In this document: positions 20,579 to 41,966 of the stretch, in pieces
Layout: every line of letters starts with the position of its first letter
How positions within the stretch are numbered: position 1 is the stretch's first letter
NCBI GenBank assembly: GCA_934402395.1
Contig: CAKRTQ010000006.1
Span: 16,964 to 80,963, forward strand
Length of the DNA stretch: 64,000 bases
Source of the DNA: an uncultured Eubacteriales bacterium
Lineage (GTDB): Bacteria; Bacillota; Clostridia; Oscillospirales; CAG-272
Direction of reading: 5' to 3'
The notes under the pieces: model-generated
The model's input: the letters and a program-made list of their open reading frames with translations, nothing else
Database searches by the model: none
Told to the model about the DNA's origin: nothing
Made by a program: the position numbers and the translations under genes

Positions 20579-20581
20579 TTT

Positions 20582-21337: not shown

Positions 21338-21397
21338 ACTATGGAGTTCCTTTCGTATTACACGTTTTCGGTTTCCGGCGCGGTGTCAGGCCGGATG

Positions 21398-23748: not shown

Positions 23749-23749
23749 A

Positions 23750-24790: not shown

Positions 24791-24805
24791 TTTTATGACC
24801 GTTCC

Positions 24806-26041: not shown

Positions 26042-26053
26042 GTCTGTCTCCTC

Positions 26054-27343
26054 TCATTTTATATTTTTAAAGCATATACCTTCCACCATGAGAAGCGAAT
26101 TACGCCTCAGGCTTTTCATAAAGAACGGCACGACAAAGGTTATGATCATCTGCGTTAAGAGCGAAGTGAACGCAGCGCCGGTAGCCCCCCAGATCGGAAT
26201 GAATATGAAATTCAGTATCACATTGCAAACTGCCGCCGAAATATAAATATATTTCAGGTATTTCTGCTTGTCCTCGCATACCACCCACGCATTTCTTGCC
26301 ACTCCGAGATAGGAGAAAGCCGTATACCACGTGACGACACGCAGCGGAGCAACCGCCGGAAGGTATGCATCACCGTAAAGTATTTTTATTATCAGTCTGC
26401 CGAATATGCAGAACAGCGCCGACACCGATACGGCTGCATAAAACACAATGGCATAAAGCCGGCGGTTCTTTTTTTCAAACAGCTCATGATCGGTTTTGTA
26501 CGCCTCCATTATCGAAGGATAGACCGAATCGATTATTGCCGCAAGTACGAAACTCCACATACCGCACACGGCGGTCGCCGTAGAATAGTAACCGACATCG
26601 GCATCGCTCAGCATATGTTTGAGCATGAATTTATCCGCGTAACCGTATATTGCCACCATCAGGCTCGGAAGTATGAAATGCACGCTTCGGGAAAGTATGC
26701 GGCGGCAATCCTCGGTCGAAAACGCGAGCCTCCCCCCGCCTTCTCTTTTGTAACAGATGATGAGGAAAACGCCAACGCAGATGTAATCGAGCGCATAGGA
26801 AAATGCAAACCATTCAACGCTCTTTCCGAGGATAAGAAGCACGACCTTGTAGGCGGAGGTTATCACATACGCCGCCAACGTCGCCACAGTTGTGATCTTG
26901 GAGCGAAGCCGAGACTGGAACCAGTAGTTGAAGGTCTCAAATATATTGAATATAAGTCCGAGGCTGCAAAGTGCCGTGACCGTAATGGTCACCGGCTCGT
27001 CCGCTTCAAGCACACTGACTATGAGTATTATCACTCCAGCCGACAAAAAGCTTGAAAGCGCACGCATTGCCAGCGTTGAGCCGATTATGCTTCCCTCTCT
27101 GCCCGGATGGTCGATAAACTCCTTTACAAGCACGGAATTTATGCCAAGCGTGCAAAACGCCATAAAAAACACCGTATAAGCCGTAGCATAATTTATGAGC
27201 CCGTAATTCGAGGGTCCGAGGTAGCGCACGGTAAACAGACCGACCGCAAAGCTTATAAGCATCTGAGCCGCCTTGCCGAAGATCAGCCATCCCGCATTTT
27301 TCACAACGGCATTGCCAAGATACCGTTTTACAGTCTTTATCAT
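26054..27343 (-). CDS. wzx: Wzx-type oligosaccharide flippase (MOP superfamily)
   Basis: Track ORF 26054..27421, refined to ATG 27343 (MIKTVKRYLGNAVVKNAGWLIFGKAAQML), just after the upstream stop at 27352. About 12 TM helices. Confidence 0.85.
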   Translation of the reverse strand: MIKTVKRYLGNAVVKNAGWLIFGKAAQMLISFAVGLFTVRYLGPSNYGLINYATAYTVFFMAFCTLGINSVLVKEFIDHPGREGSIIGSTLAMRALSSFLSAGVIILIVSVLEADEPVTITVTALCSLGLIFNIFETFNYWFQSRLRSKITTVATLAAYVITSAYKVVLLILGKSVEWFAFSYALDYICVGVFLIICYKREGGGRLAFSTEDCRRILSRSVHFILPSLMVAIYGYADKFMLKHMLSDADVGYYSTATAVCGMWSFVLAAIIDSVYPSIMEAYKTDHELFEKKNRRLYAIVFYAAVSVSALFCIFGRLIIKILYGDAYLPAVAPLRVVTWYTAFSYLGVARNAWVVCEDKQKYLKYIYISAAVCNVILNFIFIPIWGATGAAFTSLLTQMIITFVVPFFMKSLRRNSLLMVEGICFKNIK

Positions 27344-27351
27344 TTGTCTTT

Positions 27352-28500
27352 TCACCCCGTAAACCAATCGTCGTCGAACGGCTCTGCCGCGCTGCAGGGT
27401 CCATCGGGATAAAGGTCGCATCTGCCGTGTGCGCGCAGCTCGTCCGCAAGCTTAAGAAAACGCTCTGCGGCGACATCGGCGTTCCAGGTGTCTCTTATCG
27501 TGCAATATGCACGTTCGCCAAGACTGCGGCGGCGGTCGGGAGCATCCATAAGGCTGCGAACGGCAGAATAAAGCCCGTCCGTATCTCCGCTTCTGTACAC
27601 GATCCCGTTCTCGCCGTGCTTTACAAGGTATGGCACCGCCCCCGCGGCGTGGCTTGCAACAACAGCGCAGCCGCTGTTCATCGACTCATTGAGGACAGCC
27701 CCCCAGCCTTCTCCGCGATCGCTTGTAAAAAGAAATATCTCAGCCTTTTCCATATGCGCCCTCACTTCATCCGGCGTCATTGCGCCGAGAAGCTTAACTT
27801 CATTTTCAAGCGCGTATTTTTTTATGCTTTCCTCAAGCATCTGACCTTTTTCTCCGCTGCCTATGATCTCAAGGCTGAAGGAATATCCGTCGCTTTTCAG
27901 CCTTTTTGCCACCTCAACGGCGGCTTCCGGGTGTTTCCAGTCAAGAAATCTGCCGCACCAGAGAACGGAATTTTTTCGTTTTGCGGACATAAGCTCCCCG
28001 ATGTCATACGTTTTTGCCTCGGGAAAATAGCCCCACTTGTAGCTTTTCCCTCGAAACGCACCGTATTTTTGATAATCGGCAGCGGCAAACGCCCCGGCGG
28101 AAAGCAGGTAAAGTGAGCGATGCCTGCCGTAGAGAAAGTAATACTTTATCACGCGCGGCAACCGCTTGCGGCGGTCATATCCATGCTTGAAGAGACGTTC
28201 GGAATACCTGAACACAGGCTTCCCCGCGCGCAGTCTCTCCTTTACCGCCTCTGGCGGAGCACTGCCGTATATCACAACATCGGCATCGTTCACAAGCTCT
28301 GCGGCATCTCCCGCCGGCGCACCGTCGCAATGAATCACAAACGGCGCGTCCTCATCGGGGTCCCACCCCATAAGACGGCGTTCTTCGGAAAATTTCTCGG
28401 TCGCCACAAACGCAAAGCTGTGCCCCGTAAGCCGTTCAAAGGCGCGCGAGAGCGGTCTCTGATGGTGATTGTAGAAATTTGACAAAAACACAAGCCGCAT
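27352..28500 (-). CDS. glycosyltransferase family 4 (GT-B, GT1-type C-terminal domain)
   Basis: Track ORF 27352..28554, refined to ATG 28500 (MRLVFLSNFYNHHQ). The C-terminal EGWGAVLNESMNSGCAVV matches the E-x7-E region of retaining GT4 enzymes. Confidence 0.8.
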   Translation of the reverse strand: MRLVFLSNFYNHHQRPLSRAFERLTGHSFAFVATEKFSEERRLMGWDPDEDAPFVIHCDGAPAGDAAELVNDADVVIYGSAPPEAVKERLRAGKPVFRYSERLFKHGYDRRKRLPRVIKYYFLYGRHRSLYLLSAGAFAAADYQKYGAFRGKSYKWGYFPEAKTYDIGELMSAKRKNSVLWCGRFLDWKHPEAAVEVAKRLKSDGYSFSLEIIGSGEKGQMLEESIKKYALENEVKLLGAMTPDEVRAHMEKAEIFLFTSDRGEGWGAVLNESMNSGCAVVASHAAGAVPYLVKHGENGIVYRSGDTDGLYSAVRSLMDAPDRRRSLGERAYCTIRDTWNADVAAERFLKLADELRAHGRCDLYPDGPCSAAEPFDDDWFTG

Positions 28501-28519
28501 CTTTATGCGCCTCCTTAAT

Positions 28520-29749
28520 TTATTTTTTCCGTATCGCAGCGGGGCTTTTTTCAATTAAGTCATGGTATATTCCGATGTATTTGCCAAGCCGCTCACGCCG
28601 ATCAAAATGTGCGGCACGCGCACGGCACGCCTCGCGCGTATATGGATGCTCCTCGCAAATACGCACTGTCTCACGCAGCATTGAAGCCATGTCGCCGGTA
28701 TCGACAGCCACTCCGCAGGTCCCGTCGATGCATTCGGCGCTTCCGCCCGTTGCGAACGTCACCACGGGAGTGCCGCAGGCAAGCGCCTCTATGTTCACGG
28801 TCGGCAGATTGTCCTCGCGTGTGGGATTAACGAACACGTCTGCTGCCGAATATATTTCAGCCAGCTCATGGCGGTCCGCCGTTCGCGGGATCGATATCAC
28901 ACCGCGCGGAAGACTTTTATCGACCTCCGCGTCTGTTCCGACCAGCACCACGGCATACCCCTCAGGGAGTTCCCCGGCAAGCTTTATCATTACATCGAGC
29001 CCTTTGCGGAAGCTCCAGCCGAATGACACGCCGAGCACTGTTTTTTTGCCTTCAAGACCATATTTTTTTCTGATGTCGGACGGTGTATATTTGAAAACAT
29101 CAAGATCAATGCCATTGTTGACCGTAACGGTGGGATAACAGCCGAGAAAAGACTTCCCGGCAAGCTTCCTCAGCCACTCGGACGGCGTTACGACAACGGC
29201 AGTACCGATGCCGGTAAACCACTTTCTTTTTTTATTCCACACAAAACGTGTGTTGTCGGTGGGAGAAAGTGAATATACGCGCCGCACGGGACATCTGCCG
29301 CAGCCGGTCTTCCACCGTTCGCACCCGGACAGCATAAAATGCGGGCATATCGCCGTAAACGCCCAGCAATCGTGGAGCGTCCAGACAACGGGTATATCGT
29401 GCCGTTTGATGTACCCGAAAAGCAGCGGCAGATTGACATAGCTGCCGTGCAGATTGTGCAGGTGGATGACGTCGGGCGAATACTTACGGACGCGCCTGAG
29501 AAACGCCGCCGTGTGAAAGAAGGAAAAGAAGCCCTTGAGCATCGTCAACCTTGCGAGAAATCCGTGAATGCGGCTGTCTGTGCGCGTGCTTATGCATACT
29601 GTGTCGGGGCATTCCGGATCTCCGTCATCGCGGCACCTGTATGCCGTCAGACATCCGATCCCCGAAGAGACGCAGATATCGTGTATATCGCGGGCGATCT
29701 TTCCCGTGCTTCCCTTCCCATATACCGTGTTTATCTGTAATATCTTCAT
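28520..29749 (-). CDS. glycosyltransferase family 4 (paralog of 32260-33369)
   Basis: Track ORF 28520..29836, refined to ATG 29749, which overlaps the wzy stop as ATGA. Motifs: MKILQINTVYGKGSTGKIARDI, HLHNLHGSYVN, WTLHDCWAFT, and EDNLPTVNIEALACGTPVV. Confidence 0.85.
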   Translation of the reverse strand: MKILQINTVYGKGSTGKIARDIHDICVSSGIGCLTAYRCRDDGDPECPDTVCISTRTDSRIHGFLARLTMLKGFFSFFHTAAFLRRVRKYSPDVIHLHNLHGSYVNLPLLFGYIKRHDIPVVWTLHDCWAFTAICPHFMLSGCERWKTGCGRCPVRRVYSLSPTDNTRFVWNKKRKWFTGIGTAVVVTPSEWLRKLAGKSFLGCYPTVTVNNGIDLDVFKYTPSDIRKKYGLEGKKTVLGVSFGWSFRKGLDVMIKLAGELPEGYAVVLVGTDAEVDKSLPRGVISIPRTADRHELAEIYSAADVFVNPTREDNLPTVNIEALACGTPVVTFATGGSAECIDGTCGVAVDTGDMASMLRETVRICEEHPYTREACRARAAHFDRRERLGKYIGIYHDLIEKSPAAIRKK

Positions 29750-30969
29750 TTTTCCGCGTTTTTTTGCTTTTTGAAATATGACGCATTGAGACCGGTGAGG
29801 CTCCCGTTTATCAGACAGTAAAACGGGAAGAGCCACGCCATGCCGGCTAAAATGGGCTCAACACAGAATTCGAGCAGCACGGCAACGTAAACGCACAAAA
29901 ACGCCAGCTTGAGGCTCACCGCATGGTCGGTGCGGCGCAGGAATATCCACAGCCGGCGCACGCCGGACACGATTATCCCCGCAAGCATTATAAATCCCGC
30001 CGCGCCGTATTCATCGTATCCGTCAAGCAGCAGGTCATGCGCATAGCCGTACATTGCGCGCATATTGAGTCCGCCGAATGGGTACTTGTACGCTGTCGAA
30101 AGGAATGCAAGCTTTGCGTGCAGACGCGGAAATGAGCTTGATGTGATTTTTGAAAGCGCGCTGAATCTCGCAAACAGACTTGAATTCATAACTATTTTCT
30201 GTATGCCGCCGATGTCGAATGCAAATATCACTGCCAGAAGCAGGAACGAACCGGTAATACAAAAGCGAAGCCGCTGCTTTGCGCCTCTGTCTTCAAGCAC
30301 GCGCATGGCATACAGAAATCCGACCGCAAAAACTATAAGAAGTATAACAATGGATGTTCGGCAGGCGAGGATGAGATTGTACGCAAGCACACCGATGATG
30401 CACACAGCTCCGATCGCCCTGAAGCCGCGGCGCGGCGGCAGTATGATCATTGCAACGGCAAGACCGAGCATGAGGCAGGCAAGCGCCGTCTGTCCCGTTG
30501 CCGCCAGTGCGCTTCCCGTCCATATATCGTTGGTGTTGCGCCCGATCTGCTTGCCGAAATTGATAACATAATTCAGAATATAATGCGAAAACGACCCGAA
30601 TGACATAACAAGCAATAACAGATAGGAATTTTTTTGCGCTTCCGCAGGGTCGAAATCCGCCGCCGCATCGTCTTCCTGCGACCTTACGACCGTCATGTTG
30701 TATCCCACCCAATAAAGAAGGACGGGTGTAAAGCATCTGAGCATGGACAGAACTCCTTCGTTCCGGTTGTACACCGCCATAAGGAGGCAAGGTAATATGT
30801 AAATGACCGATGTTAGGTCGATAATTATCTTTTTTTGAAGAAGAAACATAAAAAGGAGCGAGGCAAAAGCAAAATAGAAATATTTGGAGCAGAAATTGAT
30901 CGCAGCAAAAAACAGCAGCGTACAGACCACTGCGTTTTTTATTTTGCCGACATCGATCTTCAGTTCCAC
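29746..30969 (-). CDS. wzy: Wzy-type O-antigen/capsule repeat-unit polymerase (O-antigen ligase-like membrane protein)
   Basis: 407 aa with about 10-11 TM helices and a large external loop. It is the lowest-G+C gene of the locus, as is usual for wzy. Confidence 0.75.
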   Translation of the reverse strand: MELKIDVGKIKNAVVCTLLFFAAINFCSKYFYFAFASLLFMFLLQKKIIIDLTSVIYILPCLLMAVYNRNEGVLSMLRCFTPVLLYWVGYNMTVVRSQEDDAAADFDPAEAQKNSYLLLLVMSFGSFSHYILNYVINFGKQIGRNTNDIWTGSALAATGQTALACLMLGLAVAMIILPPRRGFRAIGAVCIIGVLAYNLILACRTSIVILLIVFAVGFLYAMRVLEDRGAKQRLRFCITGSFLLLAVIFAFDIGGIQKIVMNSSLFARFSALSKITSSSFPRLHAKLAFLSTAYKYPFGGLNMRAMYGYAHDLLLDGYDEYGAAGFIMLAGIIVSGVRRLWIFLRRTDHAVSLKLAFLCVYVAVLLEFCVEPILAGMAWLFPFYCLINGSLTGLNASYFKKQKNAEK

Positions 30970-32180
30970 TTTTTGACCTCACTCAAAAAATTTTTTATCT
31001 TTTTCCCCTGATTCAGGGGGCCTTTTTCTCTTACGATAAAATCCTGAGCTTCCGCTCCGATGCGGAGAAGCTCATCGGATGAGTGTGAAAGCGCGTTCCG
31101 CATTGCCGCAAGCAGGCTTTTTACGCTGTTGTCATCGGCGGAAAACACATATTTCATATATTCGTCCGGTATTCCGCCCAGCCTTGTTGTAAGCAGAGGC
31201 GTGCCGGACAGCATGTACTCCGTTGTTTTGGACGGAAAACTGTATTTTGTGAACTCTTCATGCGGATCGCGCGGATTCACGAGAAGAGTTGCTTTTTTTT
31301 CGTATTCAAGTATTTCGCTGCGCGCGACAGTTCCGAAATACCGTATTTTTTTATTGACGGCAGAGCGTTTTTTTATTTCCTCGACCGCCGTACCGTCGCC
31401 GAACAGCCAGAGCTCAACGCCGTCATTTTCACGGGAAAGCTCCGAAAAAGCGTCAACAAGGTTGAGGATACCGTATTTTTCGTGCAGCATTCCCGCATAC
31501 ATCACAGCGGCAGGACGTGATTTTTCCCCGGCGTGACGGCGTGTGACACCTGAGGTATCTGCTATTCCCTCCATCACGATATACGGCTTGTCCGGCGCCA
31601 CGACCGAATGCATGGCTTCGGTAAGGTAAATATACCCGTCATATTTTCCCTGAGCCTCAAGCGCGGAACGGAGGTACATCTGCTTCAGCTTTCCCGCAAG
31701 TGCGCCGTTTTTTTCGTTAATATACATATCGCGCGGCAGGTCCGGGATTATTGCCACCGTAACGAGCGAATATTTTTCGGCATACCGCATGACATCTTCT
31801 GCCATAAACGGCGGGACGGAATATGTGACCACAATGCCGCCGGGATGAACCTTTCCCCAGTGCTTCAGCACACCCGCGGCGTCGGCGCGGCGTGTGAGCT
31901 GCTTCAGTACGGGCAGATTAAGCGTTCTCAGCCACCGGCCGGAAACACCGCACGCGAGAGCTTCGGTTTGTCCGCCGAAGTACAGCAGTCGGCAGGACGG
32001 AAATGTGGGGATCATCGGAAAGCTGTACACTTCAGCTCTGCACCCGTTTTTTGCAAGTCCGCCGAGCAACGCCGATTCAAACACTATCGGCGCGACAGAG
32101 GGCTTGTTTTTACAGTCCGAGAGGAGCCTGTCATATCCGGCAATATCGCACACAGTGCCAAAATACAAGATATCTTTCAT
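30960..32180 (-). CDS. glycosyltransferase family 4
   Basis: GT-B C-terminal signature NPRDPHEEFTKYSFPSKTTEYMLSGTPLL. Confidence 0.8.
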   Translation of the reverse strand: MKDILYFGTVCDIAGYDRLLSDCKNKPSVAPIVFESALLGGLAKNGCRAEVYSFPMIPTFPSCRLLYFGGQTEALACGVSGRWLRTLNLPVLKQLTRRADAAGVLKHWGKVHPGGIVVTYSVPPFMAEDVMRYAEKYSLVTVAIIPDLPRDMYINEKNGALAGKLKQMYLRSALEAQGKYDGYIYLTEAMHSVVAPDKPYIVMEGIADTSGVTRRHAGEKSRPAAVMYAGMLHEKYGILNLVDAFSELSRENDGVELWLFGDGTAVEEIKKRSAVNKKIRYFGTVARSEILEYEKKATLLVNPRDPHEEFTKYSFPSKTTEYMLSGTPLLTTRLGGIPDEYMKYVFSADDNSVKSLLAAMRNALSHSSDELLRIGAEAQDFIVREKGPLNQGKKIKNFLSEVKKWN

Positions 32181-32259
32181 CTTTTGTTTTGAAAAGCTCC
32201 GTTTCCTGTCATTTTACAGCGCGGTGAGCCGTACACGCGTAACCAAGAAGATCTCACAT

Positions 32260-33369
32260 TCAGCTCTTTTTTCTGCCAAGTTCCACGATCCTCCGCACGA
32301 CCGACTCAAGGTCGCCCGGCTCCACCGCATTTTCGGGCGGGACCATTTCGGCGCACCCGCCCGTGCGGTACGTTATGCACGGCGTGCCGCACGCCTGCGC
32401 TTCAAGATTTACGGTCGGATAATTGTCCTCATATGTCAGATTCAGGAACACATCCGCAGCCGTGTATATCCTCGCAAGCTCTTTTTTTGAATCAGTACGC
32501 GTTATCGGAATTATCCCGCGCGGCATTTTTGCCGCCTGCGAGGGCGTCAGCCCCGCAATGACCACGGCGTAGCCGTCGCCGAGCATTCCGGCAAGGCGCA
32601 CAAAATCGCCGAGTCCCTTGCGCTCACTCCATGCGGAGGCAACGCCGAGGACAACGATCTTATCCTCTATCCCGTATTTTCGGCGCATATCGCTCGCGGT
32701 CGGCACAAATGCCTCACGGTCGATGCGGTTGTTCACCACCTCGATAGGATAGCCGCCGAGAAAGCTTTCGCGCACGAGCCCCGCCAGCCATTCGGACGGC
32801 GTTATGAGCGTCATTTTGTTCACACCGCAAAACGCCGCACGCTTTTTTTCAAAATTTCTTTTGCAGTTGTCTGCAAAAAGGCTTTTGGGATAACTCTTTT
32901 TCTGCGGACAGCGCATGCAGGCGCTGCGCCACTGCTCACACCCGACATATGAAAAGTGCGCGCAATGACCCGTAAATGCCCAACAATCGTGAAGAGTCCA
33001 CCTGACTTCCATCGCGGGGCGCGATTTTATCCAGTCGAACAGCATGCCGACGTTTATATAATACCCGTGCAGATTGTGGAGCCACAAAAGATCCGGATCG
33101 TATGCGCTTGCCCTGTCAAGAAAGCGCGCGGTCGCACGTACAGCGCCAAAACCTTCATTGTCAAAAATACGCGCCGCAAGCGCGTTGGCTCTTACTCCCG
33201 CTTCACTGCCTATACGCACCGCTATATCGGAATATTCCTCCGGTACGCGCTCGCGCCCATAGGCTATCCTGCATTCGTCGCCGCGCGCCATATATTCTTC
33301 GGCAATATCGGTGGCGATCCTGCCGGTGCTGCGTATACCGCAGACAGAATTGATGATCAATACTTTCAT
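32260..33369 (-). CDS. glycosyltransferase family 4 (paralog of 28520-29749)
   Basis: MKVLIINSVCGIRSTGRIATDI, WLHNLHGYYIN, WTLHDCWAFTGHC and EDNYPTVNLEAQACGTPCI. Confidence 0.85.
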   Translation of the reverse strand: MKVLIINSVCGIRSTGRIATDIAEEYMARGDECRIAYGRERVPEEYSDIAVRIGSEAGVRANALAARIFDNEGFGAVRATARFLDRASAYDPDLLWLHNLHGYYINVGMLFDWIKSRPAMEVRWTLHDCWAFTGHCAHFSYVGCEQWRSACMRCPQKKSYPKSLFADNCKRNFEKKRAAFCGVNKMTLITPSEWLAGLVRESFLGGYPIEVVNNRIDREAFVPTASDMRRKYGIEDKIVVLGVASAWSERKGLGDFVRLAGMLGDGYAVVIAGLTPSQAAKMPRGIIPITRTDSKKELARIYTAADVFLNLTYEDNYPTVNLEAQACGTPCITYRTGGCAEMVPPENAVEPGDLESVVRRIVELGRKKS

Positions 33370-33387: not shown

Positions 33388-33419
33388 AGGTCATGCTGCG
33401 CCGCAGCGCAGCATGACCT
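33388..33419 (-). other. intercistronic 14-bp GC-rich hairpin without U-tract (RNA-stability or partial-termination element)
   Basis: AGGTCATGCTGCGC-cgca-GCGCAGCATGACCT lies between the stop of the 1871-aa gene (33473) and the next glycosyltransferase start (33369). Confidence 0.5.
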
Positions 33420-33472
33420 GAATTGTACCGGGCTTTATGTCAGTGAGGCAACGCCGGCGTCCCGGCTTCGGA

Positions 33473-36400
33473 TCATCTTGCCGTAAAGCTGATGCCGTGC
33501 TCGGTCGCAAACTTTTCGGCGTAAGAGCCGGCTGCAACATTCAGGACCAGCTTTGCCGATCCGTTGAAGGCACTGAAATAGATGTTATTCACGCCGGCAG
33601 GGAGATACAGGCTCTCAAGCGCGAAACAGTCGCCGAAGGCGTACGCACCGAGCGAGGTCACTGTTTCGGGAAGCACCACCGATGCAAGCTTCGGAGCATT
33701 GATGAAGGAAAGAACTCCGATGCCGGTAAGCACGCTTCCCTCTTCAAACACTATGCTCTCAAGGTTCTGGCAGTATGCGAACGCATAGTTGCCGACCGAG
33801 GTGATATCCTTACCTATTATGACCTTCTTTATCATGTGGCGGAAGGTTCCCCACGGCTGCTCGGTATAAGCCTTGTAGTTGACCATGGCTCCGCTGCCCA
33901 TGACTCTGAATTCGCCGTTCTCGTAAAGCTCCCATGTGATGCTGTCGCCGCATTCGCCGCTGAGGAAGGGCAGATCGGCAGCCGCACGCACCGTGTGCTT
34001 TATGTTATGGGCAACAGCAAACTGTTCGGAATATGTTCCCGCCGCAACATCAAGCACGACCTTGGTCGAGCCGTTGAAGGCACTGAAGTAAATATTGTTG
34101 ACACGCTGAGGAACATAAAGTGACTCAAGTGCAAAGCAATCGCCGAACGCGTACGCGCCTATGTACATAACGCTTTCGGGAAGCACGACAGATGTGAGCT
34201 TCGGTGCGTTAATGAAGGCAAGTATGCCTATTCCGGTAACCTTGCTGCCCTCAAACACTATCTCGCTGAGGTTCTGGCAGTATGCAAAGGTGTAATTGCC
34301 GACAAATGTAATGTCCTTGCCGATCGTGACCTTCTTGATAAGGTGACGGTAAGCAGCCCACGGCTGTTCGGTGTAAGCCGAATAATTTGTCATGGCGCCG
34401 CTGCCTTCAATTCTTATCTCGCCGTTTTCGTACATTTTCCATACGGCGTTGTCGCCGCAGCTTCCGGATGCAAACGGAATATACTCAAATGCACGGGTGG
34501 TGTGGTTTATTCCGTTTGCGTTTGCAAACTGCTCGGAGTATGTTCCAGCCGCAACATCAAGCACGACCTTGGTCGAGCCGCTGAACGCGGTATGGTAGAT
34601 AAAGCTTACGCCCTGGGGAACATAGAGGTTCTCAAGCGCGAAGCAGTCGCCGAATGCATAAGCATTTATAGATGTTACCGTTTCGGGAAGGACCGCAAAT
34701 TTGAGCTTAGGTGCGTTGATAAAGCCGAGAACGCCCACATTGACAAGTCTGCTTCCCTCTTCAAACACGATGCTCTCAAGGTTCTGGCAGTATGCGAACG
34801 CATAGTTGCCGACCGAGGTGATATCCTTACCGATCAGTACCTTTTTGATAAGGTGACGGTTGATGCCCCACGGCTGCTCGGTATAGGACTTGTAATTCGC
34901 CATAGCACCGCTGCCGCGGACTTCAAGAGTTCCGTCCGAGTAAAGCGCCCATGTCACGGAGTCGGTGCAGTTGCCCGAGTAAAGCGGAGGAACGCTGCCC
35001 TCGCGCAGCTCATAAGCAAGACCGTATTCCTCGGCATATGCCTGAGCTACCGAATATCTTGCAACGAGAAGCTTTACCGATGCGTTGGCTTTGTCGAAGA
35101 TAGCCGCGCCCAGCACGGTAACGCTGTCGGGGATATATACGCTTGCAAGCACATGGTCGTTCACAAACGCCCAGCTCTTGATTGTAGTGAGTCTGCTGCC
35201 CGCCTCAACGTCAAAGTATTCAAGCGCGCCGCACTCATAGAATGCGTATTCGTCAAGCACCTCAACGCTTGCGGGGACAGTAACGCCCTCAAGACGCCAG
35301 CAGTGACCGAACGCGCCCCAGCCTATGCTTGTGAGAGAGGAACCGGGTGCAAACGTTATCTTTTTGAGGTATCCGTTTCTGAAGAATCCAAACTTACCTA
35401 TTCTTGTAATGCCGGAGCCTACTTCAAGCGCGGTGATCGCGCTCATGTCGTTTTTGATTATCCACGCGGGATATGTGCCCTTGGATGAATAATCCTTCAT
35501 TGCGCCCTCGCCGTCGATCTTAAGCGTTCCGTCGGTGAGGAGAACGTATTTGATATTTGTTCCGGAGAATCCGGCATCCGCAACCATGCTGTCGTCGCTC
35601 GATACGAACGCACCCTTCTCATCGAACAGGCAGCTGTAGCCGAGCATATCAACGGTGCCGCTTACGGCAATGCCGTTTTTATCAAAGAAATACGCGTTGG
35701 GATAAATGCATACCTCGCCCGTCTGCATAATGCCGGCGGCAAAGTATCTGTATGCTCCAACAGATTTGTCAAAGTAGAATCCGTCAAGCTTTGCGCGGTT
35801 CGGGCAGACACCGTCATCGCCGAAGTCGTAGTAGTAACCGTCGATGAGCTGAAGTCCGGTCAGCTTTACGCCGTCGCGGTAGTAGGAATCATCCTGCCAG
35901 CCGTCGGCAACGACAACACCGTTTACATAGGTCTTGCCGTCTGTCCACTTGCCGTTAAAGAGGTCGCTGCACACCGAGCATTTGAGCACGCCACCGGCGA
36001 GCTTGTAATCATGCCCCGCAACGGGAACAACGGTGCCCCAGTCTACTACCGAGGAGCAGCCCTCGCAGTATGTTCTTCCCGTATAGCCTGCCTCGCGGCA
36101 GGTCGCGGGCTTGTCGGCAACGGCGGCGGGGGTGTGAATGTGTCCGCCATTCCATGAATTGTAATACTCTTTACCCTCCGCAGTGGAGATCATATCCTTA
36201 GCCATACGATACGACTCTGTGTCCACCTGCGGACCTTCGCCGGAGAATGTTGTTACGGTTCCGTCGGTCCAGCCCACGATACCGCGGTCGATATCCATGC
36301 TGATATCGATCGGCCAGAATTCCTTCATATTCTTGAACTGCGCGTACGTATAGGCGGGCTTTCCTTTTTGCGTTCCGCTCTCATACGTATAGCCCATCTT

Positions 36401-39088
36401 GAGCTCCCATGTGCGTATGGGGAGAGACACCAATGCCGCTTCACCGACATCGGTCACATCGCCCGTACGAACAATGGAAATCGTAGCGATGTTTTCATCG
36501 TCCTGAATGGAATATGTTGCGCTGAAGCCGTTGGCTACTTCCATATGATCAAGCTCCCAGCGGCTCATATTGTTGAGGTCAATGTCAACAAGCACGGAAC
36601 GGACGTTCTCGATACGGGTCGCCACGATATCGGCGTACCATACGGAGCCCAGCTTGATCTTATCAAGCGTCGGATCATGAGCCACGACCTTTACCGTTTC
36701 CATGCCGGAGCCCGCCTGCACGTTGATCGTGCGTATTACGGATGCGTAGTTGCCCTGATTATCGCACACAGAGAACTTTACATGATGTATACCGTCGGCA
36801 AGCGCCACATCGGATACAGTGAAAACGCCATCTTTGAACGTGAATCTTGTCTCTGCACCGTCTATATATGCCTTTGCAGTGGCGGCATCAAGTCCGGTGA
36901 AGTTGTTTTTTGACATATCGTCAGCAACTCTTACCGCAAAGCTGAGTATGTTTTCGTTCACGGTCTGACCGTTCAGCACGGCAGCGTCTGACATACTGCC
37001 GGTAGCATAAGTCACATCCTCAAATTTCGGTGCTTCGCGGTCGTCAACAGCATCCGAGTAATCAACGGTTATATCGTCAACATACATGACATATCTGCCG
37101 TTGTATGACTTGTGCTGATTATAATAATATCCGTAAGAAGCACCGTCACGGTCGGAGATATAAAACTGTACGATATATCCCGCGCTCAGGTACAGTCCCT
37201 TGTACTTGCTGAGATCGATGGAAAGATAATGCCATCCCGGCTCATGGTACTGGTTGACAAAACCCGTAGTGGAAGAGACACCGTCAGCCTTTGTGTCTGT
37301 TATGCTGTCACTGCTCATTACATATTCGCCCGCATCGTTAAGCACAAGCGGGTACACGACATAGCGTATCCATGTGGAAACATCCTCATCGGATATGTAT
37401 ATCCACATACCGAGCTTTGTGGCATTCTCGAATGTTTTGACATCGCCCTTATATTGAAGTGCGGTCATCATGTATCCCGACTCCCAGGAGTTGCCGTAGT
37501 TTATATCCAGCGCCATAGCTCCGTTGCCGCTGTGCACTTTTCCGGTCGCCGGAGTCACAGGGTAGACCTTGCCCTCCGGAAGCACATAGTTGTATGTACC
37601 ATAGCCGAGATCGAACATGCTTGTATCGCCGTCCTCAAAGTCAAAGACGACCTCGGAGCCCTTTCCGAGTCTTATGATGGCAGTAGCGGCGATCTCGGTA
37701 CCGTTTATCACGGCAGTGATTCTGCTTTCAGCCACGCTGCCGTCGGCAGCCGTAAAATCGAAACCGCTCAATAAGCCGATGCCATTGTTTTCAAGCGTAA
37801 AAGTAATATCGCTTGCGCGGAATTTGACCTCGTTGAGACCGTATGTCGCCGTCATGCTCAGGGCTACCGTTGCGCCGAACGGAACGGTTATTTCCGAGCT
37901 GTTGAATAAAAGTCTTTCGGGTACAACAGCATGGATCGTTGCCGAGCCGACTTCCTTTCCGTTGTAAACGGCAGTCAATGTAACATCTCCCACCGCATCG
38001 GCAGTCAGAAAACCGTTTTCAAATTTGCCGTTTTTGACGCTGTATGTAATGTCGGCGGGAATTTCCGCCGCATTGCCCGTAGTGCTTACTCCGGCAACGT
38101 TTACGGCGACGGGAGTGCCCGCGGTCGCATATTCGGTTTCAACATTGAATGCAACACGGTCAAATGTTTTTGACGCGACCGCAGTTGAAACTACGATAAG
38201 TCCGTTGGAAATGCTGCGTTCGGAACCATCGGACGGTCTGTTGACGATAACAAAGTTATCCTCTCCTTCGGGCTTGCTGCCGTATGTCATCGAACCGCCG
38301 CCGTCAAGGTGGCCTGCCCATTTGCAGCCGAGGTCAAGCATGACCTGCGCCTGCTCCATGAGTGTGAGACCTATCGAGTAAGGGGTCTGGTTGCCGTCTG
38401 CCGAAAGCAGAATGACCTTATTGTCGGCAGTTACGCCTATCGTCTGGCGCGGATATTTGGATGTATCCTTCTGCTCGTTTTCCGAAAGCACTATCTTGCC
38501 GTCGAACACAAGCATTTTGTAAATGCCGATGGCTTCCCTGATATTGCCCTTGTCCGATTCGTAATCGGCTGCATTGCCTATTTTGGCGGTGCCATCGTTC
38601 AGAATGGCAAAATACGCCGATCTCTCGCTGCCGGTAACGTCATTGCCGTTCATAACAAACACGCCCGTGGGCTTGCCTGTTGTCATGTTGTAGTAGGAAG
38701 CGTTGATGCCTACGACCACCGTTCCGTTGTAGTAGGGATCGCCCGCAGCCGACTTTCTGTCGAATGCAGCCACCTGCTCTGTAAGCTTGGACATTCCGTA
38801 AACGGTATTGTCCATATTCTGATATGAGGTGAACAGCTTTACCGTATCGACCGACATATCAACTGTTGCGGCGAACATTTTTACCTGATTGCCGTTCTTG
38901 TCGTAAACGGTATAGATATCCTGTGTCACGCCGCTTGCAAGCGTTGATTTTTTGTCCGCTACAAGTGAAAGCTGTGAGTTCTGGAACTGCGCTTCAGCTG
39001 CCGCGGCAAAAGCCGGAACCATGCCGATAAGCATGACGAAGCACACGATCCCAGCCAAAGCCTTGACCAAAGGGGTGTTGCGTTTCAT
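33473..39088 (-). CDS. giant secreted multidomain surface protein: phosphodiester glycosidase (NAGPA/DUF2233) domain, Ig-like domains, CBM-like and cohesin-like modules, cell-wall-binding repeats, four BspA-type leucine-rich-repeat modules
   Basis: 1871 aa. Signal peptide MKRNTPLVKALAGIVCFVMLIGMVPAFAAAAEA. NAGPA motif ...PRQTIGVTADNKVILLSADGNQTPYSIGLTLMEQAQVMLDLGCKWAGHLDGGGSMTY. Big_2-like segments. GWQDDSYYRDGVKLTGLQLIDGYYYDFGDDG cell-wall-binding repeats. C-terminal LRR modules (GNYAFAYCQNLESIVFEEGS...AYAFGDCFALE). Confidence 0.85.
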   Translation of the reverse strand: MKRNTPLVKALAGIVCFVMLIGMVPAFAAAAEAQFQNSQLSLVADKKSTLASGVTQDIYTVYDKNGNQVKMFAATVDMSVDTVKLFTSYQNMDNTVYGMSKLTEQVAAFDRKSAAGDPYYNGTVVVGINASYYNMTTGKPTGVFVMNGNDVTGSERSAYFAILNDGTAKIGNAADYESDKGNIREAIGIYKMLVFDGKIVLSENEQKDTSKYPRQTIGVTADNKVILLSADGNQTPYSIGLTLMEQAQVMLDLGCKWAGHLDGGGSMTYGSKPEGEDNFVIVNRPSDGSERSISNGLIVVSTAVASKTFDRVAFNVETEYATAGTPVAVNVAGVSTTGNAAEIPADITYSVKNGKFENGFLTADAVGDVTLTAVYNGKEVGSATIHAVVPERLLFNSSEITVPFGATVALSMTATYGLNEVKFRASDITFTLENNGIGLLSGFDFTAADGSVAESRITAVINGTEIAATAIIRLGKGSEVVFDFEDGDTSMFDLGYGTYNYVLPEGKVYPVTPATGKVHSGNGAMALDINYGNSWESGYMMTALQYKGDVKTFENATKLGMWIYISDEDVSTWIRYVVYPLVLNDAGEYVMSSDSITDTKADGVSSTTGFVNQYHEPGWHYLSIDLSKYKGLYLSAGYIVQFYISDRDGASYGYYYNQHKSYNGRYVMYVDDITVDYSDAVDDREAPKFEDVTYATGSMSDAAVLNGQTVNENILSFAVRVADDMSKNNFTGLDAATAKAYIDGAETRFTFKDGVFTVSDVALADGIHHVKFSVCDNQGNYASVIRTINVQAGSGMETVKVVAHDPTLDKIKLGSVWYADIVATRIENVRSVLVDIDLNNMSRWELDHMEVANGFSATYSIQDDENIATISIVRTGDVTDVGEAALVSLPIRTWELKMGYTYESGTQKGKPAYTYAQFKNMKEFWPIDISMDIDRGIVGWTDGTVTTFSGEGPQVDTESYRMAKDMISTAEGKEYYNSWNGGHIHTPAAVADKPATCREAGYTGRTYCEGCSSVVDWGTVVPVAGHDYKLAGGVLKCSVCSDLFNGKWTDGKTYVNGVVVADGWQDDSYYRDGVKLTGLQLIDGYYYDFGDDGVCPNRAKLDGFYFDKSVGAYRYFAAGIMQTGEVCIYPNAYFFDKNGIAVSGTVDMLGYSCLFDEKGAFVSSDDSMVADAGFSGTNIKYVLLTDGTLKIDGEGAMKDYSSKGTYPAWIIKNDMSAITALEVGSGITRIGKFGFFRNGYLKKITFAPGSSLTSIGWGAFGHCWRLEGVTVPASVEVLDEYAFYECGALEYFDVEAGSRLTTIKSWAFVNDHVLASVYIPDSVTVLGAAIFDKANASVKLLVARYSVAQAYAEEYGLAYELREGSVPPLYSGNCTDSVTWALYSDGTLEVRGSGAMANYKSYTEQPWGINRHLIKKVLIGKDITSVGNYAFAYCQNLESIVFEEGSRLVNVGVLGFINAPKLKFAVLPETVTSINAYAFGDCFALENLYVPQGVSFIYHTAFSGSTKVVLDVAAGTYSEQFANANGINHTTRAFEYIPFASGSCGDNAVWKMYENGEIRIEGSGAMTNYSAYTEQPWAAYRHLIKKVTIGKDITFVGNYTFAYCQNLSEIVFEGSKVTGIGILAFINAPKLTSVVLPESVMYIGAYAFGDCFALESLYVPQRVNNIYFSAFNGSTKVVLDVAAGTYSEQFAVAHNIKHTVRAAADLPFLSGECGDSITWELYENGEFRVMGSGAMVNYKAYTEQPWGTFRHMIKKVIIGKDITSVGNYAFAYCQNLESIVFEEGSVLTGIGVLSFINAPKLASVVLPETVTSLGAYAFGDCFALESLYLPAGVNNIYFSAFNGSAKLVLNVAAGSYAEKFATEHGISFTAR
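33476..34990 (-). repeat. three tandem ~0.5 kb in-frame repeats encoding near-identical LRR modules
   Basis: For example, 33734-33812 recurs at 34751-34829 with one mismatch (offset 1017 nt, in frame). A more diverged middle copy lies near 34240-34330. Confidence 0.8.
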
Positions 39089-39148: not shown

Positions 39149-40348
39149 TTATTCGCGGCCGGTGACCTCGCGCATGATATCTTCAAGCCTGTCTGTGAGC
39201 ATATCGCACCTGAATTCGCTCATGTAGCAGTTTCTTGCGTTCGTACGCATAGCCTCAAGTGCCGCCGGGTCGGAGCGCAGGCGCATAACGGCATCAGCCA
39301 CCTCTGCGGGGTCATGCCCGCACGACACGCCGCAGCCGTGCTTTTCCACAATGTCGCGGCTTTCGCCGCCGGCGACAGCCAGCACGGGCGTTCCGCAGGC
39401 AAGATAGGTCTGAAGCTTGGCGGGAATGATGATGTCAAACAGCTTGTTTTTTCTGAATGACAGGTAAGCACAGTCCGCATAATGCACATATCTGTCCGCT
39501 TCCTTTTCGCTTACCCTGCCGATGAATATTACATTTTCATCAAGCCCCGCCTCGGTCACACGTCCACGTATTCGCGCACACGCGCGTCCGTCGCCGACAA
39601 GGAACCACCGCACCTTTTCGCCGCGCAGCCTTGCTGCGGCATCTACGAGCAGATCGAGCCCCTGCGCCTCGCCGATATTTCCGGCGAAAACTATGTTGAA
39701 GAACTCATCGCTGTATTCCAGCGGCTTTTCGCTGCCGTCAAGCTCCGGTTCGGGCGCGAACTGCGGCCAATAGACAAGCTTTTTGCGTTCGACGCCGCGT
39801 GCGGCAATATTTTCGACCGCGCCGCGCGATGTACACAGTATGCGGTCGCTTGCCGCATATATTTTATCGACTATTCTGTTTATCGTACCTATTACGAGCC
39901 TGTTTTTCACGCCGAGGACGACCTCAACGCTCTCCGGCCACAGATCCTGTACATTGAAAAGCACCGGCGCGCCGGTTTTCTTTTTGTATGCCACAGCGGG
40001 CAGACCGACCGTCACAGGCGACACCTCAAAAACGTATACCACATCGTAAACGGTCCGGCAGCGTCTGACCCACCTTTTGCCGCGAACGACAAACGAAAGA
40101 CAGTTGAACAGCAGTCCGAGCGGAGTCCTGCCGCGCGGCAGCGCTTTTACCCTCTCGATATGCACACCGTTCCACTCATGCTCATACGGGACTGCGAAGC
40201 CGTAGCCCGGATATATCCTTCCGCCCGGATACTGCGGATACCCGGTAAGCACGGTGACGTCATGCCCGCGCCGCACAAGCTCGCGGGAAAGCAGGTTGAT
40301 TCTGAATGCTTCGGGATAGAAATATTGCGATATTATCAATATCTTCAT
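39149..40348 (-). CDS. glycosyltransferase family 4, WbuB/Cap5L-like (putative L-FucNAc transferase)
   Basis: MKILIISQYFYPEAFRINLLSRELVRRGHDVTVLTGYPQYPGGRIYPGYG is typical of WbuB-type enzymes that accompany fnlABC. Confidence 0.8.
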   Translation of the reverse strand: MKILIISQYFYPEAFRINLLSRELVRRGHDVTVLTGYPQYPGGRIYPGYGFAVPYEHEWNGVHIERVKALPRGRTPLGLLFNCLSFVVRGKRWVRRCRTVYDVVYVFEVSPVTVGLPAVAYKKKTGAPVLFNVQDLWPESVEVVLGVKNRLVIGTINRIVDKIYAASDRILCTSRGAVENIAARGVERKKLVYWPQFAPEPELDGSEKPLEYSDEFFNIVFAGNIGEAQGLDLLVDAAARLRGEKVRWFLVGDGRACARIRGRVTEAGLDENVIFIGRVSEKEADRYVHYADCAYLSFRKNKLFDIIIPAKLQTYLACGTPVLAVAGGESRDIVEKHGCGVSCGHDPAEVADAVMRLRSDPAALEAMRTNARNCYMSEFRCDMLTDRLEDIMREVTGRE

Positions 40349-40350
40349 TG

Positions 40351-41217
40351 TTATCTTTCCGTTTCGTTGACCGACTCCTCAAGAGAAATGCATTCAAATC
40401 CCGGATATACGCTGAGTGCGCGGTCATAAGTCAGACTCCCGAACGCCTTTCCGACAGCTCCGGTGAAATGCCCGAGAATGCCGAGCAACCATCCAAAACC
40501 GCCGACAAGACGTATCTTTTTCCCGTGCGCTGCCGCTATCATACGAACCATTTCGCCAGTGTCGGTGTATTCCGCATTTTGCGGAAAGAATATGCCCGAC
40601 AGGCGGTCGTCTATCAGCAGCTTCACAAAACGGCAAAGATTGACTATATATATCATGGAACGTTCGTTTTTTACGCGCGGAAAAGCAGGAAGCTTCTGTG
40701 CCAATGCCGAAAGACGCGGGTAGTTGCCACGGCTGCCCCTCCCGTACACCATAGGCGAACGTATCACCGCCACGCGAAAACCGTCGTCTGAAAGCGGCAG
40801 TATTCCCGCTTCGGCTTCCAGCTTGCTTTCGCCGTAGCGGTTGGAGGGCGATGGTACAGTATCGGCAGTTATGACCTTGCGCTTACCAGGCGCTGCGCTG
40901 TCGCCGTAAACAACGATGCTGCTCATGAATATGAACTGTCCAACGCCGTCTGCTTTCGCTTTTTCAGCCGTTTCGACCGCAAGACGTGTGTTTATCGCAT
41001 TGTATATATCGTCTCTGTCACCGCACCGTCCGGAATCGGAATGCGCTATTCCCGCAACATGAAAAACGGCATCGTAGCCGGAAAAGCTCACATCACGCCA
41101 TGCATCGCCCCTCATGTCAACGGTATCGACAGAATATTCCCCGTCCTGCGTTTTTATGAATTTCTCAAATGAGCAGCCGATATAGCTGCCGGCGCCGGTA
41201 ATAAGTATTTTTTTCAT
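40351..41217 (-). CDS. SDR-family NAD-dependent sugar epimerase/reductase (Cap5N-like)
   Basis: GAGSYIG Rossmann motif and YGESK catalytic Y-x3-K. 288 aa. It overlaps the upstream sugar transferase by 4 nt. Confidence 0.8.
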   Translation of the reverse strand: MKKILITGAGSYIGCSFEKFIKTQDGEYSVDTVDMRGDAWRDVSFSGYDAVFHVAGIAHSDSGRCGDRDDIYNAINTRLAVETAEKAKADGVGQFIFMSSIVVYGDSAAPGKRKVITADTVPSPSNRYGESKLEAEAGILPLSDDGFRVAVIRSPMVYGRGSRGNYPRLSALAQKLPAFPRVKNERSMIYIVNLCRFVKLLIDDRLSGIFFPQNAEYTDTGEMVRMIAAAHGKKIRLVGGFGWLLGILGHFTGAVGKAFGSLTYDRALSVYPGFECISLEESVNETER

Positions 41218-41858
41218 TTTTCAACTTTTTGCGACGGTAATTCATCTTTTTCGCCACTGCCGCACTCCACTACGCCTTCATGACGCAGGACCGAGCGCAC
41301 AGTACCGAAAAAGCAACGGCAATCCATAATAAATCCCTTACCGTGGCCCATATTCAGCGCATCGGAATATACACCGTCAAGCTTCGCTTTTTCGGAAATT
41401 TCAAGCTCATCCCTGCCGTTTATCTGCGCCCAGCCGGTAAGCCCCGGCTTTACATCGTTGGCACCGTATCTGTCGCGCTCGGCAACAAGATCAAACTGAT
41501 TCCACAACGCGGGACGCGGACCGACTATGCTCATCTGCCCGACAAAAATATTGAATATCTGCGGCAGCTCGTCTATGCTTGTACGGCGGATAAAACGCTG
41601 CCACCGCGTGAGTTCAATGCGCGTATGCACCAGCTCGTGAGTCGGCATATCGTGCGGCGCTGACATCGGCATGGATCTGAACTTGATTATCCTGAATTCC
41701 TTCTTGTGCAGCCCTACGCGATTCTGAACAAAAAATACAGGTCCCGGCGAATCTGCCTTTATAATAACGGAAACTATCAGCATGGGTACCGCCAGAACGA
41801 CGATAGCAATGCCGCTGAGAAGTATGTCAAGCACCCGCTTGAAAAAAGCTTTATACAT
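41214..41858 (-). CDS. undecaprenyl-phosphate sugar-phosphate transferase (small PglC/Cap5M-type initiating transferase)
   Basis: Track ORF 41214..41909, refined to ATG 41858 (MYKAFFKRVLDILLSGIAIVVLAV). Motifs: PGPVFFVQNRVGLHKKEFRIIKFRSM and PGLTGWAQINGRDE. Confidence 0.88.
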   Translation of the reverse strand: MYKAFFKRVLDILLSGIAIVVLAVPMLIVSVIIKADSPGPVFFVQNRVGLHKKEFRIIKFRSMPMSAPHDMPTHELVHTRIELTRWQRFIRRTSIDELPQIFNIFVGQMSIVGPRPALWNQFDLVAERDRYGANDVKPGLTGWAQINGRDELEISEKAKLDGVYSDALNMGHGKGFIMDCRCFFGTVRSVLRHEGVVECGSGEKDELPSQKVEK

Positions 41859-41937
41859 TAATGTATATCCTGTCCTGAAACGTATGTTTTTCGACTTCTG
41901 AAGAAGCAACTGCTTTTTGAAAATTACAGCCCACTAT

Positions 41938-41966
41938 ATAATATCACCCGATGGGGTTTTTGTCAA
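41938..41966 (-). promoter_or_regulatory. sigma-A type promoter of the capsule operon (TTGACA-17-TGaTATTAT)
   Basis: Read on the minus strand: TTGACA at 41966-41961, a 17-nt spacer, and TATTAT at 41943-41938. It lies about 75 nt upstream of the first capsule gene. Confidence 0.6.

Follow-up and report, generated by a model that had tools for sequence, protein, structure and literature searches.

The 64,000-nucleotide stretch of contig CAKRTQ010000006.1 analysed here (from an uncultured Eubacteriales bacterium; hereafter the window) carries, in the middle of a capsule-type polysaccharide locus, a gene for a giant protein of 1871 amino acids (aa) whose N-terminal catalytic domain belongs to the NAGPA/DUF2233 phosphodiester-glycosidase family. 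Comparison with related genomes reveals that this giant is a fixed, co-oriented component of capsule-type gene clusters in many gut Clostridia, which suggests that these bacteria, having exported their surface polymer, then cleave a sugar-phosphate bond within it. I tentatively favour, with a confidence just short of even, the reading that the giant is an active secreted surface phosphodiester glycosidase of its locus, acting on the locus's own polymer, as far as sequence allows this to be judged. The gene and its ribosome-binding site are located as follows (positions are those of the window unless stated otherwise):

33473..39088 (-): giant gene, ATG start, uninterrupted open reading frame of 1871 aa plus stop codon
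39096..39102 (-): Shine-Dalgarno sequence AAGGAGA, 7 nt before the giant ATG, inside the 60-nt gap behind a GT4-family glycosyltransferase gene

The GroEL encoded in the window is 98% identical to that of "Anaerotruncus sp. CAG:390", which places the organism among the uncultured Clostridia of the human gut. The exact giant protein is present on 10 contigs of the public collection. Residues 1-1100 retrieved 584 relatives, of which the best 120 show 61-79% identity; the relatives are 914-1891 aa in length (about 1260-1890 aa when full-length). In six contexts with precomputed Pfam labels, the giant is co-oriented with the surrounding genes and lies in the middle of a polysaccharide locus, with glycosyltransferase sets that differ from one context to the next. 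Among species-representative genomes, the N-terminal module of ~1060 aa was found in at least 39 loci, down to 32% identity, in Oscillospiraceae, Acutalibacteraceae, Ruminococcus, Lachnospiraceae (Roseburia, Faecalimonas) and the cultured Acetitomaculum ruminis DSM 5522. The open reading frames of all these loci were labelled by phmmer, with Pfam-labelled genes as seeds. In 30 of the 32 loci that have both flanks, polysaccharide genes of the same orientation surround the giant; the two exceptions are a locus where it is the last gene, and a tandem pair in Acetitomaculum. As this survey was selected through the giant itself, I also sampled loci through another gene of the window locus, encoding a kinase-like 411-aa protein, and a giant combining NAGPA and LRR_5 domains was found at the same position in all three. 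Finally, a HMMER search with the stalk that follows the catalytic domain (residues 478-1050) returned at least 154 clusters at 50% identity (E<=1e-30), and since the stalk match nearly always begins at residue ~475-630, the architecture is fixed.

The preliminary description of this DNA had tied the function of the giant to the polysaccharide locus, while leaving room for the gene being an insertion. The comparison of orthologous loci bears out the former, in 30/32 related and 3/3 independently sampled loci, and disposes of the latter. A recent insertion, or a hitch-hiker unrelated to the locus, would be in keeping with the giant being the only large extracellular protein of the locus, and with flanking gaps larger than those of most neighbours. 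Against this, its GC content (0.51-0.53) equals that of the neighbouring genes, its mid-locus position is kept in both samples, and in a syntenic locus (L006) the neighbouring genes are 48-83% identical to those of the window. The synteny effectively rules out a recent insertion, and an unrelated hitch-hiker is exceedingly improbable.

The NAGPA-type catalytic domain is of a known kind, and no published description was found of the conserved arrangement of a giant within a polysaccharide locus. No study of a bacterial NAGPA protein in such a locus was encountered in a partial coverage of the literature, which is not proof of novelty. The capsule-locus context is the clearest clue found to the role of bacterial NAGPA/DUF2233 proteins. 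The giants occur widely among Clostridia of the gut and rumen, abundant bacteria that have received little study and whose surface glycans shape immune recognition and phage susceptibility.

Catalytic domain and modular architecture

The following elements were identified in the giant, from the N- to the C-terminus:

39005..39088 (-): signal-peptide-like N-terminus, aa 1-28, read from the sequence (MKRNTPLVK, a 15-aa hydrophobic core, AFA↓AAAE)
38186..38956 (-): NAGPA/DUF2233 phosphodiester-glycosidase catalytic domain, aa 45-301 (Pfam PF09992 and PDB matches)
38291..38305 (-): DGGGS catalytic/phosphate-binding loop, aa 262-266, within GHLDGGGSMTY
37664..38164 (-): two Ig-like beta-sandwich modules, aa 309-387 and 392-475 (AlphaFold block, pLDDT 81-94; Foldseek matches to multi-Ig chains)
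37061..37657 (-): beta sandwich of ~200 aa, aa 478-676 (FDFEDGD...QFYISDRDG...VDDITVDYS), where the stalk is best conserved
36215..37012 (-): Ig-like module, aa 693-790, and beta sandwich of ~160 aa, aa 799-958 (AlphaFold, Foldseek)
35939..36154 (-): Cys/His-rich segment, aa 979-1050 (invariant H983, H985, C997, C1008, C1011, H1026, C1037, C1040)
35489..35911 (-): weak cell-wall/choline-binding-type repeats, aa 1060-1200 (Choline_bind_3 E=2.5e-4, sub-threshold)
33476..35482 (-): four BspA-type LRR_5 modules, aa ~1203-1371 (divergent) and three tandem copies of ~170 aa, aa 1372-1871

The PF09992 profile matches residues 123-300 almost end to end (profile positions 2-169 of 169; E=1.5e-33, 116.8 bits against a cut-off of 25). 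The best solved-structure match, a DUF2233 protein of Bacteroides ovatus (PDB 3OHG), spans the whole catalytic domain at residues 45-301 (E=1.4e-16), and the vertebrate NAGPA structures 6PKU and 6PKY match more weakly (E about 5e-6). The B. ovatus structure was reportedly described by Das and colleagues in the Journal of Biological Chemistry in 2013; unlike the giant, it is a single-domain protein of 285 aa without stalk or anchor.

In human NAGPA, according to a structural study of 2026, the invariant DGGGS loop (D286-S290) is needed for activity, D286 being essential, and the phosphate is held by the glycine backbone of this loop together with T260 and R316 (PMC13474241). The enzyme breaks the glycosidic C-O bond and not the P-O bond, with retention of the anomeric configuration, D286 is proposed to bind the C6 hydroxyl of the sugar, and E226 and T227 read the N-acetyl group of GlcNAc (PMC13474241). 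Correspondences between these residues and those of the giant come from sequence alignment at low identity. The DGGGS loop is kept in all 38 N-terminally complete family members. In the same alignment R291, which lies 29 residues past D262 (30 for human R316), is invariant across the five catalytic classes described below, as is a DG.Q.P.S loop, which aligns to the human loop that carries T260. At the T260 position itself the residue is not conserved, being T235 in the window and a glutamate in most relatives. Phmmer places D208/T209 at the position of human E226/T227, in a poorly aligned and class-variable region, and the human N-acetyl-reading residues are not clearly conserved in the giants and vary from one bacterial class to another. 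Each class has its own fixed version of the loops that align to the human sugar-reading residues (KYPRQTIG, RHSRTCVG, AAPRSVVG), while the phosphate site is invariant.

Beyond the shared PF09992 family, DGGGS loop and phosphate-binding arginine, the giant and human NAGPA have in common an N-terminal catalytic domain followed by a stalk that spaces it from an anchor, and both act (presumptively for the giant) outside the cytoplasm on the product of cytoplasmic-face or luminal transferases. Outside the motifs they are less than 20% identical; the stalk is made of beta sandwiches in the giant and of EGF-like domains in the human protein, and wall-binding/LRR repeats stand in place of the human transmembrane helix. 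A hydrophobic N-terminus equivalent to that of the window protein is found in 38/38 N-terminally complete relatives, and the giant looks secreted and retained at the surface.

An AlphaFold model of residues 300-1060 (32 homologues, mean pLDDT 75) consists of all-beta modules, two of ~80 aa followed by modules of ~200, ~95 and ~160 aa, and ends with two short helices and the Cys/His-rich stretch at low confidence; the stalk thus comprises ~650 aa of Ig-like/sandwich modules. Foldseek matches it to Ig-like/CBM chains, namely the CBM51 region of ZmpB, the S-layer protein Sap, PrgB and a multi-modular xanthanase, and no second enzyme fold was found in this model. Pfam searches of six sub-segments of residues 300-1200 at E<=10 returned only sub-threshold Ig-like and choline-binding hints. 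The Cys/His-rich segment is retained in nearly all family members, and other large proteins (P0363, P0389) repeat its ~48-aa core 13-19 times in tandem; possibly this is an extracellular repeat that binds metal.

At the C-terminus, LRR_5 (PF13306) matches four stretches well above threshold (E=2.4e-71, 238 bits against a cut-off of 27.7). The corresponding DNA forms direct repeats with a period of 507-510 nt and 64-79% identity in a direct-repeat finder; Tandem Repeats Finder reported none of them, the period being above its limit. The preceding repeats are below threshold for both Choline_bind_3 (21.4 bits against 27) and the glucan-binding repeat (E=0.006, 16.8 against 147.7 bits). The C-termini of the relatives vary, with choline-binding repeats in some and LRR_5 in others, and many do bear wall-binding repeats of the PF19127/PF01473 type.

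These results can be set against the domain order read by eye in the preliminary description. The NAGPA assignment is upheld by the profile and by the intact catalytic residues, and the four LRR modules by PF13306. The outline of the order agrees with the model, but the modules labelled "CBM" and "cohesin" are not confirmed, Foldseek giving generic multi-Ig/CBM chains only, and the cell-wall-binding repeats amount, in the window protein, to a sub-threshold resemblance.

Clustering of the catalytic domains gives one class of 16 loci that includes the window, a second of 18 loci (~40-46% identity to the window), and three small classes. These classes (about 40-78% identity to the window) swap independently of the conserved stalk: the giant of L006 is 45% identical to that of the window in the catalytic domain and 77% in the stalk, while for L012 the values are 73% and 52%. 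Stalk sequence tracks relatedness and not locus type, and the C-terminal module travels with the downstream half of the locus: loci whose giants share the wall-binding/LRR C-terminus of the window (47-76%) mostly have the downstream GT1-GT1-Wzy-GT4 genes in common with it too. Sequence comparison thus portrays the giant as a mosaic, whose catalytic heads and C-terminal anchors appear to have been exchanged around a conserved stalk. The closest relative (79%) resides in a non-syntenic locus (DegT, TupA, GT2), and the syntenic locus L006 has a 68% relative, which suggests that the substrate has some feature shared by all loci. TupA is confined to loci of the window class, in counts uncorrected for relatedness.

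The tandem giants of Acetitomaculum ruminis DSM 5522, the only cultured carrier found and a possible experimental model (L026, NZ_FOJY01000012.1), lie at 2535-9842 (2435 aa) and 9962-15517 (1851 aa) of that sequence; they belong to different catalytic classes and are followed by a BY-kinase gene.

The polysaccharide locus, its transcription and RNA elements past the giant gene

The locus runs over ~22 kb from 41909 to 19901, with all genes on the minus strand, separated by overlaps or gaps of at most 103 nt, and the giant mid-way:

41938..41966 (-): best promoter-like site of the locus (TTGACA-17-TATTAT, extended TG, 11/12), upstream of the initiating transferase
39149..41909 (-): upstream genes, encoding a polyprenyl-phosphate sugar-phosphate transferase (Bac_transf), a CapN-like SDR and a GT4 (WcaI/WbuB-like)
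19901..33369 (-): downstream genes, encoding GT1, GT1, a Wzy-like protein with 8 transmembrane (TM) segments, GT4, GT1 and Wzx, followed after Wzx by the kinase-like 411-aa protein, FnlA/FnlB/FnlC-like proteins, a CpsC-type Wzz and a BY-kinase
33388..33419 (-): GC-rich hairpin of 14 bp with a 4-nt loop and no U tract, 53 nt past the giant stop and 18 nt before the next ATG

The window therefore holds a complete Wzx/Wzy-type locus with an L-FucNAc-type pathway. Its initiating transferase (Bac_transf, E=4e-52), five GT1/GT4 genes and Wzx (Polysacc_synt, E=7e-29) are recognised by profiles, as are the CpsC-type Wzz (TIGR01006, E=3.6e-32) and, above cut-off, the BY-kinase (TIGR01007, E=1.3e-59); Wzy is deduced from a 407-aa, 8-TM protein without profile match. 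No CpsB_CapC and no LytR_cpsA_psr (LCP) gene was found among the open reading frames scanned in the window. The locus resembles cap5/cap8 of S. aureus in its small initiating transferase, CapN-like reductase, GT4 L-FucNAc-type transferase, FnlA/B/C (CapE/F/G)-like enzymes, CpsC/CpsD-type regulator and tyrosine kinase, Wzx and Wzy. In contrast, cap5/8 has neither an NAGPA protein nor the kinase-like 411-aa protein, and its phosphatase is of the CapC type where the window has a Y_phosphatase3 protein.

The gap between the giant and the next gene is 103 nt long and contains the hairpin, a GGAGA Shine-Dalgarno-like sequence and then the ATG. A consensus scan of this and of the 60-nt upstream gap found no promoter-like or terminator-like site that stands out, in agreement with the preliminary description, whose reading frame, orientation, gap lengths, AAGGAGA and 14-bp hairpin were likewise reproduced. 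Promoter-like sites are not in excess over positions 30000-44500 (14 observed, 13.2 in shuffled sequence), and the sole strong one on the minus strand is that at 41966-41938, with a divergent AraC/GyrI-type regulator gene opposite. Along with the gaps and the giant's own Shine-Dalgarno sequence, this suggests that the giant is co-transcribed with its neighbours, and ribozymes in related loci (see below) point the same way.

The hairpin of the window is a perfect stem with an RNAfold energy of -32 kcal/mol. A hairpin of dG<=-20 kcal/mol within 80 nt of the giant stop is present in 87% of 30 non-redundant loci, compared to 6% after 396 other co-oriented genes, or 13% of those with a gap of at least 40 nt (Mann-Whitney p=3e-18). 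Its position is conserved and its sequence is not, and it mostly has no U tract; its probable role is to protect or process the 3' end of the RNA.

In ten loci, the hairpin is followed by an HDV-like ribozyme (Rfam RF02682), 29-67 nt past the giant stop. Three of these score above the gathering threshold of 44 bits, and their positions on the respective loci are:

L001, 14217-14290 (coding strand): RF02682, 51.7 bits
L008, 14230-14304 (coding strand): RF02682, 59.5 bits
L028, 15099-15165 (coding strand): RF02682, 55.7 bits

The further seven (L003, L009, L022, L030, L033, L036 and L039) were found through nhmmer. The ribozyme is always on the coding strand, and none occurs elsewhere within flanks of +-10 kb. 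As a self-cleaving ribozyme acts only within a transcript, transcription in these loci must run from the giant into the downstream genes, and cleavage would leave an upstream RNA ending in the hairpin. In the window itself, the post-giant gap contains no Rfam family at gathering score, and nothing relevant at E<=10 in 33200-33600. A published example of an RF02682 ribozyme, in F. prausnitzii, lies upstream of glmM (PMC6765202). The site past the giant is a recurrent ribozyme context different from that one, and the junction of hairpin and ribozyme represents a natural bacterial context for a ribozyme class of largely obscure biological role.

In TupA-type loci, the gene directly past the giant and the ribozyme encodes a protein of 505-510 aa with 9-11 hydrophobic segments and no Pfam match (L001 15380-16912, L003 14816-16333, L008 14370-15896). 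It is probably the flippase of these loci, which have no recognisable Wzx.

Candidate substrate and competing functions

Little is understood of how Gram-positive Wzx/Wzy polymers come free of the lipid carrier or the wall, and of what sets the balance of bound and shed polymer. The giant is a concrete candidate for such a release, being conserved, operon-encoded and predicted extracellular, in a family whose only characterised reaction is the cleavage of sugar-1-phosphate diesters. There are functional parallels in the exopolysaccharide operons that encode the glycosidases or lyases PslG, BcsZ, AlgL and PelA, extracytoplasmic, co-transcribed and thought to trim, release or clear polymer. Those are Gram-negative periplasmic enzymes of mostly synthase-dependent systems, and cut ordinary glycosidic bonds, whereas the giant is a 1871-aa putative surface protein of a Gram-positive-type Wzx/Wzy locus.

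I propose that the promoter ahead of the initiating transferase would drive the giant together with the biosynthesis genes, and that the protein would be exported through its signal peptide, with the C-terminal wall-binding/LRR part holding it at the surface, at the far end of the stalk. Outside the cell, the NAGPA domain would then act on a sugar-1-phosphate diester in the polymer of its own locus, breaking the anomeric C1-O bond and leaving the phosphate on the other partner, and so trim or release the polymer. The substrate I would prefer is the bond joining the polymer sugar-1-phosphate to undecaprenyl phosphate, to the MurNAc of peptidoglycan or to the next repeat unit, since all of these differing loci have to make the bond of the initiating sugar, and no other sugar-1-phosphate diester is required of them all. 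The preliminary description had suggested post-export trimming or release of a sugar-1-phosphate-linked polymer; the NAGPA domain and the tie to the locus support the first part, and the linkage itself is conjectural, no dedicated transferase having been found in the window.

A broader proposition, which I regard as doubtful, is that the giants would supply an extracellular step so far missing from the picture of Wzx/Wzy assembly in Gram-positive gut anaerobes. By severing the sugar-1-phosphate bond of the polymer to lipid carrier, wall or next repeat, they would set the proportion of bound capsule to shed exopolysaccharide, with exchangeable heads matched to the polymer, and with the hairpin/ribozyme RNA processing site setting the dose of enzyme relative to the operon.

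Several observations weigh against own-polymer cleavage as proposed here. Apart from the initiating transferase, the window yielded neither a Stealth protein nor any other sugar-1-phosphate transferase that could be recognised, and with no ribozyme in the window the indication of read-through comes from its relatives. The 6-deoxy sugars of FucNAc/QuiNAc type suggested by the locus genes do not possess the C6 hydroxyl that human D286 is proposed to bind. An LCP ligase gene, not found in the window, was seen at a distance of up to 10 kb in just 6 of 42 loci (each with a giant as well), so that a wall phosphodiester is not documented. The catalytic class is also independent of the initiating transferase and its partner (CapN-like or DegT), a pattern not expected of an enzyme that reads the initiating sugar; each type of initiating transferase pairs with both main classes, and the idea that the initiating sugar sets the class is unsupported. 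Lastly, the class co-varies with LicD, a correlation that may reflect linkage or a different substrate: LicD is found in none of the 16 window-class loci and in 14 of 21 others, counts that are uncorrected for relatedness.

This last observation bears on a bacterial form of "uncovering", where a cytoplasmic enzyme would add a sugar-1-phosphate side group to the polymer and the giant would later remove the covering sugar, exposing a phosphomonoester. Such a reaction is known for the NAGPA family, on the way to mannose-6-phosphate (PMC13474241). In 11 loci the giant is immediately preceded by phosphotransferase genes of the LicD family, and sugar-reading loops that differ by class around an invariant phosphate site would fit different covering sugars. 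The conserved kinase-like enzyme of the window also makes phosphate chemistry on the polymer plausible, but a kinase yields a monoester directly, which would make uncovering needless and is not a substrate for NAGPA. As LicD adjoins the 5' end of the giant gene, which encodes the catalytic domain, its correlation with class could be pure linkage. In L052, LicD stands beside an IspD-family cytidylyltransferase and an SDR, the usual donor set for alditol-phosphate and not for sugar-1-phosphate, and the window and all other loci of its class have neither LicD nor, in the window, another domain that could install the side group. I consider uncovering quite unlikely for these reasons.

The giant could instead be mainly a surface adhesin, or an enzyme for foreign glycans (those of the host, or the teichoic acids and capsules of other bacteria), placed in the locus for co-expression. 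The preliminary description had raised a coupling of capsule and adhesin expression on account of the LRR modules. These four BspA-type modules faintly resemble the HupY/LrrG adhesin model (E=1.6e-20, far under its cut-off), and diversification of the catalytic and C-terminal modules would suit either role. LRR_5 is however limited to a subset of the family, the others bearing wall-binding repeats, and the adhesin coupling can apply to that subset only. In spore-forming Bacillota, giants that combine NAGPA and prok-TelC domains are predicted conflict systems (Lipocone preprint, 10.1101/2025.01.14.632903 / eLife RP108061). According to the passage of that report devoted to them, these are, like the giant, large secreted proteins with NAGPA, Ig-like and wall-binding modules that vary between close relatives. 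They are built around a two-enzyme core, and that passage describes no polysaccharide-locus context, unlike that of the giant family. The giant has no TelC or other helical enzyme domain, and its membership in this group was rejected. Co-regulation alone hardly explains a mid-operon place kept over family-level divergence and in unrelated locus types, and I judge a primary role in adhesion or on foreign glycans unlikely.

Retention of the anomeric configuration by NAGPA (PMC13474241) raises the prospect of a transglycosylase or ligase, which would move the reducing end of the polymer from undecaprenyl diphosphate to a wall or protein acceptor, and replace LCP. The scarcity of LCP genes in the window and within 10 kb of most related loci would be accounted for, and were the signal sequence not cleaved, the catalytic domain would follow a membrane anchor, near the lipid-linked polymer. 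Retaining glycosidases often transglycosylate. There is no precedent for this in the NAGPA family, the signal sequence has a typical AFA↓A cleavage site, and LCP may be encoded elsewhere in the genome, six loci having both LCP and the giant. A ligase role is accordingly improbable, and cleavage of the locus's own polymer is the reading I retain, at the strength given at the outset.

Kinase-like protein, phosphatase and other genes of the window

Two further genes had been taken, together with the giant, as hints that the polymer carries phosphate:

24806-26041 (-): kinase-like 411-aa protein (predicted fold), with 120 relatives, all unnamed or "hypothetical"
17700-19847 (+): Y_phosphatase3 protein, 715 aa, cytoplasmic-looking, CX5R motif HCVGGADRTG

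The kinase motif noted in the former is borne out. The protein has no Pfam, NCBIfam or PDB sequence match, but its predicted model (pLDDT 93, pTM 0.91) returned only kinases among the Foldseek top 50, PI4K type II being the best (E=2.4e-5), followed by Ron13 and CotH (TM 0.2-0.38), and D274, N279 and D296 are invariant in the family, with kinase-like spacing. The 411-aa protein recurs in loci of the window type, and in L006 it is fused to FnlA (22730-25051, a 773-aa open reading frame). Judging from the model, it is probably an atypical kinase of a new kind with a link to the FucNAc pathway, a candidate for a new kinase family of capsule loci, and phosphate on the polymer is thus possible.

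The second hint did not stand. What had been described as a phosphatase-bearing fibre is a tyrosine-phosphatase-family protein, whose gene is convergent with that of the BY-kinase of the CpsC/CpsD-type pair, 54 nt away, in a stretch of 62% GC. Relatives of its phosphatase domain (31% identity) occur inside the polysaccharide loci L017 and L028, and its C-terminal 320 aa received no assignment. With no CpsB in the window, the protein is probably the regulatory phosphatase partner of the BY-kinase, for which it may be an alternative to CpsB, and its use as a sign of polymer phosphate was rejected.

Past the polysaccharide locus and the AraC-type regulator, a cluster at 44289-48055 (-) and 48158-50135 (-) encodes a 792-aa Cthe_2159 carbohydrate-binding protein, a DUF4956 protein and a VTC-domain protein, and adjoins a histidine kinase and response regulator pair. 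At the other end of the window, a bacterial large SRP RNA (RF01854, 176.6 bits) is located at 7848-8113 (-), beside a dnaX-like gene.

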